A stretch of DNA of 64,000 nucleotides from Escherichia coli O157:H7. GTDB taxonomy: Bacteria; Pseudomonadota; Gammaproteobacteria; Enterobacterales; Enterobacteriaceae. Position numbers: made by a program. Below are positions 16,001 through 19,000 of this stretch, in pieces. Location of the stretch: NCBI RefSeq assembly GCF_013167455.1, contig NZ_CP038328.1; one strand, written 5' to 3'. How positions within the stretch are numbered: the first letter of the stretch is position 1; each line of letters starts with the position of its first letter.

Positions 16001-19000
16001 GCTGAATTACAGCCAGTTGCTGAAAGTGTACCGTGCGCTGCTGACCGAAGGCGTTTCCCTGCGCGATATCGTCACCATCGCCACCGTGCTGGTCGCCAGT
16101 AGCGCGGTGACTAAAGATCATATTCTGCTGGCGGCCGATGTGCGCCTGGCGCTGCGGCGCAGCATTACCCATCCGTTCGTTCGCAAGCAGGAGCTGACGG
16201 TGTATACGCTGAATAATGAGCTGGAAAATCTGCTGACTAACGTAGTGAATCAGGCGCAACAGGGCGGTAAAGTGATGCTCGACAGCGTGCCAGTGGACCC
16301 GAATATGCTCAACCAGTTCCAGAGCACGATGCCGCAGGTGAAAGAGCAGATGAAAGCGGCGGGGAAAGACCCGGTGCTGCTGGTGCCGCCGCAGCTGCGC
16401 CCTTTGCTGGCGCGCTATGCAAGGTTGTTTGCGCCGGGGCTGCATGTGCTGTCGTATAACGAAGTGCCGGATGAGCTGGAGTTGAAGATAATGGGGGCGT
16501 TGAGTTGATTGGCCTTTAAGGGGCGCATCCGGCATTGGTGCACAATTGCCGGATGCGGCGTGAACGCCTTATCCGGCCTACGGTTGAGTGCAGTTTTGTA
16601 GGCATGATAAGACGCGCCAGCGTCGCATCAGGCATCCGGCACCAGCGCACAATTATGAAATGATACGCTCCCCGGCACTAAAATCCGTTATGTCTCCCGC
16701 CCAATCAATGGGATATAACCCTCGCGCCACATCGCGATGGAACGTTGAGAATGGCCAATCACTCACTTGCTTTACCCAGCCATGTTTTACTGGATTTATA
16801 TAAATATAATCAACATGATGGCGATAGTCTTTGGTATTGCGGATGGTGTGCTCCTAAAAACGTGGTTGCCAGATATTTTTCAATCCACAAGCATGGGTGA
16901 ACTGCTTTTTAATCTCCCGCCAGCGGGAGGAAAAATCATCATCGCTTTCGGGTAATGTCCATATGCAATGCATATGCTCCGGCAAAACGACCCAGGCGTT
17001 AATTTCAAAAGGTCTGTCTCGCTTAACGTTAATAATGGCGTTACGGAGCATCTGGAACTGAGCGGTCAGAAGGTGGCTTCGACGATTTCGTAGGTTAACC
17101 GTGAAAAACCAGGTTCCCCCTTTGATGTAATACCGACGATATTCAGACATGGCAACTCCTTTTTCTCAACGGTAAGAAGAAAAGGAAAGGTCGGCAATGA
17201 GGTGATGGAATAACGGGAAAGCGGCTCGCAAAAACGCACAGATTTGTAGGCATGATAAGACGCGTCAGCGTCGTATCAGGCATCTGCGCACAACTGCCGG
17301 ATGCGGCGTGAATGCCTTATCCGTCCTACAAAATCGTCTCTTCCGTCAAAATCCGGCGCGCGCCTAAAAAGTGATCCTGCCAGAAAGGTTCAGCTAACCG
17401 ACTTACCCGAATGGTTTCCCCGGTGCGCGGTGACTCAATAAACTGACCGTCGCCCAGATACACCCCCATATGGTCGGCAATCTCGCGGCTGTGGATATGG
17501 AAAAACAGCAAATCTCCCCGGCGCAGGTCGTTATTCGCCACAATCGTTGCCCGATGGTAGTGATACATCTCATTAGCCGTACGCGGGAGCTTCGCCTCGA
17601 GGATCTTGTTGTAGGCATAAAAAACCAACCCGCTACAGTCAAAGCCTTTATCAGGCCGCGTGCCGCCCCAGACGTAAGGCTTGCCAAGCTGCTGCTCCAG
17701 GCGGTGAATCGCCACTTCGGTAATGTTATGCAGATGGTCGCTGCTTAAAAAGTGGTTGTTTTCCGCCAGCGCCTGCCAGCGTCTGTCACTCGCCTTGAGC
17801 GGTGCAGGAAACCATTCTGGATGCTGTTTTATCTGTTCGCGGTTGTGCTGGCGTAGCGCCCTTCTGCTTTCGGCATTGCCTTCCACAATATAGCTGACCA
17901 GCTTTTTCAGATGGGTTTGGTACTGTTTTAATAAACGCGCACGGTTTTGCATCCGCTGGCGGGCGGCGTAGCTGAAAGAGATATGTGATGTGGTGGCGCT
18001 GGCAAATGAAGAAAACGGCAAACAAATCAACAGTAATCCCGACAATACAAAGGATGGAATCGACGGCAAGGACATACTCAATAATGGCTGGTCATGCATT
18101 GATGTTACAGTGTATCCCGGCCCGTACCTGAACAAACTTAATAAACCATTATTATAAAATTAATAAATATATTTCAGTTAATTATGTAAAAACATCCGTT
18201 TATTAAATTACTCATAGATTGTCGCTGTTGCTCATTTGAGCTACAATTCAAGCTGAATAAATATACAGCATAGGAGATATCCCAATGGCTGCTAACGCAT
18301 TTGTTCGCGCCCGAATCGATGAAGATCTGAAGAATCAGGCGGCGGACGTACTGGCCGGGATGGGGCTGACCATCTCTGACCTGGTTCGCATAACCCTCAC
18401 AAAGGTCGCGCGTGAAAAGGCATTGCCGTTTGATTTACGCGAGCCTAATCAATTAACCATTCAATCAATCAAAAACAGCGAAGCTGGCGTTGATGTTCAT
18501 AAGGCCAAAGACGCCGATGATTTATTTGATAAATTAGGAGTTTAAATATGATTCAAAGGGATATTGAACTCGGGACAATTTTCAAAGGATGTAAAACTTG
18601 CACAAAAGCGTCATAAGGATATGAATAAATTGAAATATCTTATGACGCTTCTTATCAATAATACTTTACCGCTTCCAGCTGTTTATAAAGACCACCCGCT
18701 GCAAGGTTCATGGAAAGGTTATCGCGATGCTCATGTCGAACCGGACTGGATCCTGATTTACAAACTTACCGATAAACTTTTACGATTTGAGAGAACTGGA
18801 ACTCACGCGGCGCTCTTTGGGTAAAGCCCGCTGCCGATGAAATTTGTAAACCCTGCGCCGACAGGCTTGCGTAAAACTCTTTTGGTGATAATGTGAGCCT
18901 TCCCAATCCAGACTATTCCGATTTGGGATCCATTTTGCCGTCCTGGCGTGTGTAACCGTTTTATCAAGGAATAAGCAGTATGCGTAAAATCGCATTAATT

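Follow-up and report, generated by a model that had tools for sequence, protein, structure and literature searches.

The yafQ toxin gene at positions 18548 to 18824 (plus strand) of the window, meaning the whole 64,000-nucleotide stretch of Escherichia coli O157:H7 contig NZ_CP038328.1 that was analysed, is a pseudogene of the YafQ family and not a protein-encoding member of it. The loss of 2 bp at codon 8 shifts all the remaining yafQ sequence into the +1 frame. From the sequence comparisons described below, it is very probable that the gene is a recent frameshift pseudogene fixed in typical O157:H7, that no full-length interferase is produced, and that the intact dinJ, presumably expressed, is left as an orphan antitoxin or regulator.

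The 2-bp deletion in codon 8 of yafQ

The closest known module is K-12 dinJ-yafQ, in which YafQ is a ribosome-dependent mRNA interferase of the RelE/ParE superfamily (PDB 4Q2U, 4ML0, 4MMJ). The locus in the window occupies the same site between yafL and dpaA (yafK) and shares the operon layout, promoter-like hexamers and LexA box of K-12; DinJ differs from its K-12 counterpart at 2 residues, and the yafQ body is identical in nucleotide sequence save for the deletion and one SNP. Base-by-base comparison with K-12 MG1655 places the 2-bp gap at 18566 to 18569 on the plus strand, where GAATAC of the intact alleles has become GAAC, and the single substitution (A>T) at 18580. The pseudogene thus measures 277 bp, against 279 bp in intact alleles, and alignments to both K-12 and O55:H7 show that the missing 2 bp lay within Tyr8 or straddled Glu7 and Tyr8. 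The first-pass annotation, using a K-12 string that proves correct against MG1655, had proposed a 2-bp deletion near codon 8, and the alignments to MG1655 and O55:H7 CB9615 bear this out; it had specified the loss of TA, of which the 2-bp length stands, but AT and TA are equally compatible with the sequence. The alignment to K-12 yafQ that it had suggested as a check displayed the indel, so the outcome of no indel, which was to count against the claim, did not occur.

Unlike K-12, the frame in the window is broken after Glu7, and full-length YafQ is impossible. Because the 2-bp loss destroys codon 8, the residual reading frame from the native ATG (18548 to 18616, plus strand) has only 22 codons, MIQRDIE plus 15 out-of-frame residues (MIQRDIELGTIFKGCKTCTKAS), and ends at TAA 18614-18616, in agreement with the early stop that had been noticed at first reading. 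The YafQ body lies in the +1 frame, which is open from TTG 18564 to 18824 (86 aa). The first reading had correctly assigned the body to another frame and found no ATG at the head of it; its wider statement that this frame contains no ATG does not hold, as in-frame ATGs are present at 18621 (Met26) and 18642 (Met33).

The shifted body is still recognizable as YafQ. Residues 3 to 86 of the 18564 ORF match solved E. coli YafQ with a single mismatch, Phe for Tyr12 (E = 5e-55), and the translation of 18564 to 18821 scores 113 bits against TIGR00053 over profile positions 7 to 91 of 92, above the curated cutoff of 87.25 for the YafQ family (TIGR00053 / PF15738, RelE/ParE superfamily). The catalytic residues of YafQ, H50, H63, D67, H87 and F91 (PMC4652777), are all located in this +1-frame body and are invariant in our alignment of 54 YafQ-family proteins (56 to 84% identical to the query), yet they are unreachable from the native start. 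The gene carries the two marks of a frameshift pseudogene, namely an indel that is not a multiple of three relative to intact orthologues and a stop codon that cuts the native frame short, and it lacks an unbroken YafQ frame running from the conserved start through strand β1 with Tyr8. RefSeq/PGAP likewise annotates 18548 to 18824 as a "frameshifted" yafQ pseudogene (O157:H7 PA20).

The substitution at 18580 (plus strand; TAT>TTT, Tyr12Phe) was considered as a second lesion and ruled out. It is an ordinary polymorphism, because the intact O55:H7 allele carries T as well; moreover, Phe occupies position 12 in at least 90% of the 54 family members and is the consensus residue, the Tyr of K-12 being the unusual state.

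Distribution of the deletion and of other dinJ-yafQ losses

An exact 71-mer spanning the deletion was found in 296 of 5,426 complete E. coli genomes, and all 296 fall in the class of at least 99% identity over 2.4 kb; among the matches listed, the genomes with the deletion allele are labelled O157:H7 or have no serotype label. In addition, many E. coli O157:H7 chromosomes match the region from 18200 to 18900 at 100% identity. That the gap could be a sequencing or assembly error in an otherwise intact gene has next to no probability, because many laboratories and platforms have recovered the identical 71-mer, in 296 complete genomes assembled independently of one another, while sister lineages keep the intact allele; this explanation is refuted, and the lesion is a heritable change that has become fixed in its lineage.

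The nearest intact relative is the yafQ of O55:H7 CB9615 (WP_000615979.1, 279 bp), a member of the ancestral lineage, from which the window differs over 301 aligned bp by the 2-bp deletion only, Phe12 included among the shared positions; the DinJ accession (WP_000729705.1) is also common to O157:H7 PA20 and O55:H7 CB9615. Fourteen genomes contain an exact match to the intact ancestral 73-mer, namely 8 O55:H7 strains together with LSU61, 493/89, PV15-279, F3113, 2013C-4465 and FDAARGOS_946. LSU-61 has been described as an evolutionary intermediate in the stepwise model, 493/89 has been placed among the pSFO157-bearing, sorbitol-fermenting O157:NM strains, and the G5101-type plasmid pO157_2 has been reported from PV15-279 (PMC7175801); the plasmid of F3113 groups with that of PV15-279 (PMC10758439). 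Since O55:H7 and these atypical O157 strains (LSU61, 493/89, PV15-279, F3113) retain the intact allele, the deletion marks typical O157:H7, and from this distribution we infer that it arose on the last branch, leading to typical O157:H7. It offers a clean binary marker by which the 296 genomes of typical O157:H7 can be told from O55:H7 and atypical or intermediate O157. TR01, a genome that bears the O157:H7 label, does possess an intact yafQ, but its flanking DinJ and YafL protein alleles differ, which indicates that TR01 is a recombinant or lies outside the clone.

Small frameshift lesions that mark typical O157:H7 are familiar from uidA and the sorbitol-utilisation genes in the stepwise-evolution literature. 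The yafQ lesion resembles them in being a small inactivating indel acquired late in the descent from O55:H7 to O157:H7, and differs in having no known diagnostic phenotype. Our literature searches found no paper that lists yafQ among the O157:H7 lesion markers.

The locus has also been lost in other ways. CFSAN061771 has an unrelated 1-bp deletion in yafQ; in PI12, an IS1 insertion has taken out dinJ along with the 5' end of yafQ, leaving exactly the 67-aa ORF that begins at Met26; and in about 39% of complete genomes, ST131 and UTI89 included, yafL adjoins dpaA and dinJ-yafQ is absent. Loss of dinJ-yafQ is thus common in E. coli and has followed several independent routes, a wider pattern into which the O157:H7 event would fit. 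Reviews already describe how the chromosomal toxin-antitoxin systems of E. coli decay, one example being ccdO157 (Mine et al. 2009, as cited in PMC7167474). There, as here, a small mutation hit the toxin, the antitoxin was kept, the decay was lineage specific and the cassette is missing from many strains; the toxin in the present case, however, is a RelE-like RNase and not the gyrase poison CcdB, and one fixed frameshift marks one clonal lineage. The suggestion made at first reading, that an inactivated toxin beside an intact antitoxin reflects toxin-antitoxin decay, agrees with the K-12 and O55:H7 alignments, the RefSeq "frameshifted" flag on the same 277 bp and the intactness of DinJ. The yafQ lesion is ordinary toxin-antitoxin decay, young and lineage-fixed, and provides a further example in which the chromosomal toxin goes first and an orphan antitoxin is left.

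Possible translation products of the broken gene

Ribosomes should initiate at ATG 18548, because the native Shine-Dalgarno (SD) sequence GGAG (18537 to 18540) sits 6 nt from it. They would then terminate at TAA 18614-18616, having made the 22-residue peptide, and as native-start translation ends there, no full-length ribosome-dependent mRNA interferase would be expected. A low-level truncated product is possible on the sequence alone, because the body is 100% identical to that of intact alleles and passes the TIGR00053 cutoff. Transcription of the operon in Sakai, with an increase on entering stationary phase (PMC2241611), also weighs against the pseudogene reading, as do the live-gene call in the Sakai reference and the intact yafQ of TR01. 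Three routes to such a product were weighed, two by internal initiation and one by recoding.

The first route starts at TTG 18564 and gives an 86-aa protein (18564 to 18824, plus strand) reading M-N-Ser9 to Gly92, the form that the Sakai annotation lists as a live gene, ECs_0252. If it were a functional, N-terminally shortened toxin, the toxin-antitoxin pair would still be working. The ORF is open over its 86 codons, keeps α1, α2 and all five catalytic residues, and scores well above the family cutoff (113 versus 87.25 bits); it stands as a live CDS in NC_002695.2, and its protein deposit is found on at least 1,000 contigs. Against this, TTG is a weak start, and the sole SD-like element near it, AAGGG (-5.1 kcal/mol), ends 1 nt away, whereas the corresponding gaps are 6 nt for native yafQ, 7 nt for dinJ and 8 nt for dpaA. 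The codon also lies 16 nt inside the ORF that is translated from the good native SD and ATG, and PGAP prefers the pseudogene call over this ORF.

The N terminus that would be missing from the TTG product is conserved in the family. Tyr8 is invariant (54 of 54 sequences), Arg4 is conserved in at least 90%, and every one of the 54 proteins has at least 5 residues before Ser9, so that none of the full-length homologues aligned begins at Ser9 or beyond it. An alignment-based AlphaFold2 model of intact YafQ (pLDDT 93.4) contains β1 at residues 5 to 8, α1 at 10 to 21, α2 at 26 to 37 and three strands at 59 to 86, with Tyr8 as the last residue of β1; it superimposes on solved YafQ with a TM score of 0.96 and an rmsd of 0.7 to 1.0 Å and is consistent with the four-stranded sheet in the literature (PMC4652777). 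A single-sequence AlphaFold2 prediction of intact YafQ was all-helical with a pLDDT of 57; it is contradicted by the crystal structures and was replaced by the alignment-based model. Because β1 comprises residues 5 to 8 and the TTG product begins at Ser9, this product would lose one of the four strands, with Tyr8, in addition to Arg4. The first-pass annotation had named the TTG start as an alternative, a fair one given that it coincides with ECs_0252, but the SD spacing, the position of the start inside a translated ORF and the loss of Tyr8, Arg4 and β1 speak against a functional product. We judge that the 86-aa form is no functional toxin, and a still-working toxin-antitoxin pair based on it seems very improbable.

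The second route is termination-reinitiation at ATG 18621, which is in the YafQ frame and lies 4 nt past the TAA of the residual ORF. The resulting 67-aa YafQ(26-92) (18621 to 18824, plus strand) might retain some toxicity or bind DinJ in a way that modulates repression. In its favour, an AAGGA element overlaps the stop codon, all the catalytic residues are kept, the fragment still exceeds the TIGR00053 cutoff (92.5 versus 87.25 bits), and it has been deposited as AAG54550.1, which we take to be an EDL933-series accession. The SD-like element, however, abuts the ATG with a gap of 0 nt. According to the model, the Met26 product would lack β1 and the whole of α1, together with the K14/K17 and K21/R22/K24 patches. 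The basic patches of α1 and α2 add to toxicity and ribosome binding, mutations in the K14/K17 and K21/R22/K24 patches partially relieve toxicity, and both helices reportedly matter for recognizing the ribosomal A site (PMC4652777). PI12 also retains this very ORF after the loss of dinJ to IS1, which means that the fragment is either tolerated without antitoxin or not expressed. A toxic or repression-modulating Met26 fragment is accordingly very unlikely in our estimate, and neither the TTG 18564 nor the Met26 ORF, judged from sequence and model, looks like a working toxin.

The third route, in which ribosomes shift by +1 inside the 22-codon ORF, would give a near-full-length YafQ, since a +1 shift anywhere in codons 1 to 22 leads to a 91-aa product. 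The sequence AAA-A at 18593 to 18596 permits +1 re-pairing of tRNA-Lys, and an AAGGA lies 3 nt upstream in a prfB-like geometry. Nevertheless, the A-site codon in the 0 frame is ACT, neither a stop nor rare, and a product shifted at this site would still lack Tyr8 and have residues 8 to 16 scrambled. The AAGGA-N3-AAA-A arrangement was not shaped for recoding, because it is the same in intact alleles and predates the deletion. Neither a -1 slippery heptamer (X XXY YYZ) nor a prfB-type CTT-TGA-C is present, and the slippery site with stimulator that characterizes programmed frameshifting of the prfB or dnaX type is absent. We consider rescue by frameshifting extremely improbable. Under the favoured interpretation of a frameshift pseudogene, any internally initiated YafQ fragments, all without β1 and with α1 either kept or lost, should be inactive or unstable, or else be neutralised by DinJ.

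The remaining antitoxin and the annotation of the locus

The antitoxin side of the operon is undamaged. The promoter region, delimited by a consensus scan and direct reading of the sequence, extends from 18219 to 18268 (plus strand); the scan identified a -35-like hexamer TTGTCG (18219-18224) and a -10-like hexamer TACAAT (18242-18247), and a LexA-box-like palindrome of the form CTG-N10-CAG (CTGAATAAATATACAG, 18253-18268) could be read directly and is unchanged in the K-12 alignment. LexA is known to bind the dinJ promoter (PMC4996492). The dinJ gene itself (18285 to 18545, plus strand), an antitoxin and autorepressor gene, encodes 86 aa; its ATG follows the SD AGGAG at a distance of 7 nt, and its stop codon is 2 nt ahead of the yafQ ATG. 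Residues 1 to 84 match positions 1 to 85 of TIGR02384 (RelB/DinJ) with 83.6 bits, above the cutoff of 45.65, and such a full-length match directly upstream of a toxin gene identifies a RelB/DinJ antitoxin. Hence dinJ, the promoter-like hexamers and the LexA box are all intact, and only the working toxin partner is gone; with dinJ intact and yafQ frameshifted, the locus does not have the two intact, co-transcribed genes of a functional type II toxin-antitoxin module.

DinJ alone is able to bind the operator (PMC9592637), and it has been described as a repressor of cspE that in this way influences RpoS (PMC4996492). On the basis of this published biochemistry, DinJ would still be translated from the same transcript, bind the operator alone and autoregulate the promoter. 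As DinJ would keep its self-repression while the toxin is gone, the locus would act as an orphan antitoxin or regulator, and the present state is most likely a self-repressing orphan DinJ with no toxin to restrain. A different account would have the loss of YafQ selected at the last step to typical O157:H7, with DinJ, possibly together with a non-toxic Met26 fragment, still regulating targets such as cspE/RpoS. When DinJ is in short supply, YafQ is reported to slow the growth of cells at low temperature (PMC4996492), an effect that, if selection did act, could matter in cattle environments, water and chilled food. In K-12, the phenotype seen at 18 °C on deleting dinJ depends on YafQ. What the data show is that the deletion falls on that branch and that dinJ is intact; the account is very unlikely, and simple decay with a residual, self-repressing DinJ remains the interpretation that we prefer.

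At the level of annotation, the lesion is already known, and the annotations disagree. Where PGAP calls a pseudogene, the Sakai reference NC_002695.2 keeps the annotation of its authors, in which ECs_0252 is a live CDS of 261 bp identical to the TTG 18564 ORF. The transcriptome study of Sakai counted dinJ-yafQ as a working toxin-antitoxin locus common to K-12 and found the operon induced at entry into stationary phase (PMC2241611). Literature searches for a yafQ frameshift or pseudogene in O157, including the identifiers ECs0252, Z0281 and Z0282, found no report of the lesion, and the Z-number matches were unrelated. The importance of the finding is modest; it does not open up any question of long standing, and a specialist would find it unsurprising. 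It does call for caution in annotation and in reading papers that count YafQ as active in O157:H7, as the same 277 bp are presented as a pseudogene (PGAP), a live 86-aa toxin (Sakai) and a 67-aa protein (the older deposit). In toxin-antitoxin counts of EHEC and in persistence or stress experiments with O157:H7, YafQ should be treated as absent.

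Annotations of the yafQ DNA and its prfB-like motif

Three public annotations cover the yafQ DNA at 18548-18824, and they are mutually inconsistent. PGAP assigns the whole interval to yafQ as a frameshifted pseudogene, the Sakai reference treats an 86-aa CDS with a TTG start (ECs_0252) within it as live, and the protein deposit AAG54550.1 represents a 67-aa ORF from Met26, again within 18548-18824. By inspecting the residual 0-frame ORF of yafQ, we found that AAGGA, three nucleotides and AAA-A follow one another at 18585-18596, an arrangement that resembles the geometry of the prfB +1 frameshift. 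However, the yafQ site, compared with that of prfB, lacks the slow A-site codon, and AAGGA-N3-AAA-A also occurs in intact yafQ alleles; because of these two features, the likeness is most likely a coincidence.

States of the dinJ-yafQ locus in other E. coli

The dinJ-yafQ locus takes several other forms in E. coli. In about 39% of the complete E. coli genomes in the ecoli_genomes collection, the cassette is wholly absent and yafL and dpaA are adjacent, and the genomes of this kind include ST131 and UTI89. In strain PI12, an IS1 insertion removed dinJ and left a yafQ remnant of 67 aa; CFSAN061771 carries an independent 1-bp deletion at the locus, and in 97-3250 the yafQ variant is 95 aa long and overlaps dinJ. 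Strain TR01 (NZ_CP033605.1) bears the O157:H7 label, yet its yafQ is intact. The DinJ (WP_000729704.1) and YafL alleles of TR01 are distinct from those of the O157:H7/O55:H7 clade, and this strain could be a recombinant or could lie outside the O157:H7 clone.

Intact and decayed genes near yafQ

Besides dinJ-yafQ, the window carries the type II toxin-antitoxin pair yafN-yafO (12167-12861, minus strand), which lies about 6 kb from yafQ in the dinB operon, with dinB at 12913-13968 and yafP at 11705-12157. In contrast to yafQ, both yafN-yafO ORFs are fully intact (97 and 132 aa). An internal stop makes the REP-associated tyrosine transposase gene rayT (yafM; 16653-17150, minus strand) a pseudogene, and since O55:H7 CB9615 carries the same pseudogene flag, the rayT lesion predates the yafQ deletion. 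At 10663-11386, a truncated prfH (release factor H) adjoins an RtcB-family fragment, and both are flagged as partial pseudogenes in PA20, an O157:H7 genome, and in O55:H7. The region 14039-16508 holds a remnant of the Flag-2 (lateral flagellar) cluster, in which an flhA fragment without its N-terminus overlaps lafU.

The thrW end and the RHS region

At the thrW end of the window (1-2770), the tRNA-Thr gene (CGT, thrW; 2695-2770) adjoins an integrase fragment at about 1760-2680. Collinearity with PA20 ends left of about 1755, which suggests that prophage content at the thrW site varies by strain. RHS elements and ISAs1-family insertion sequences occupy 25383-35676, where internal repeats share 83-85% identity; also present in this region are ydcD (about 26736-27217), which is frameshifted, and an RHS fragment with an N-terminal truncation.
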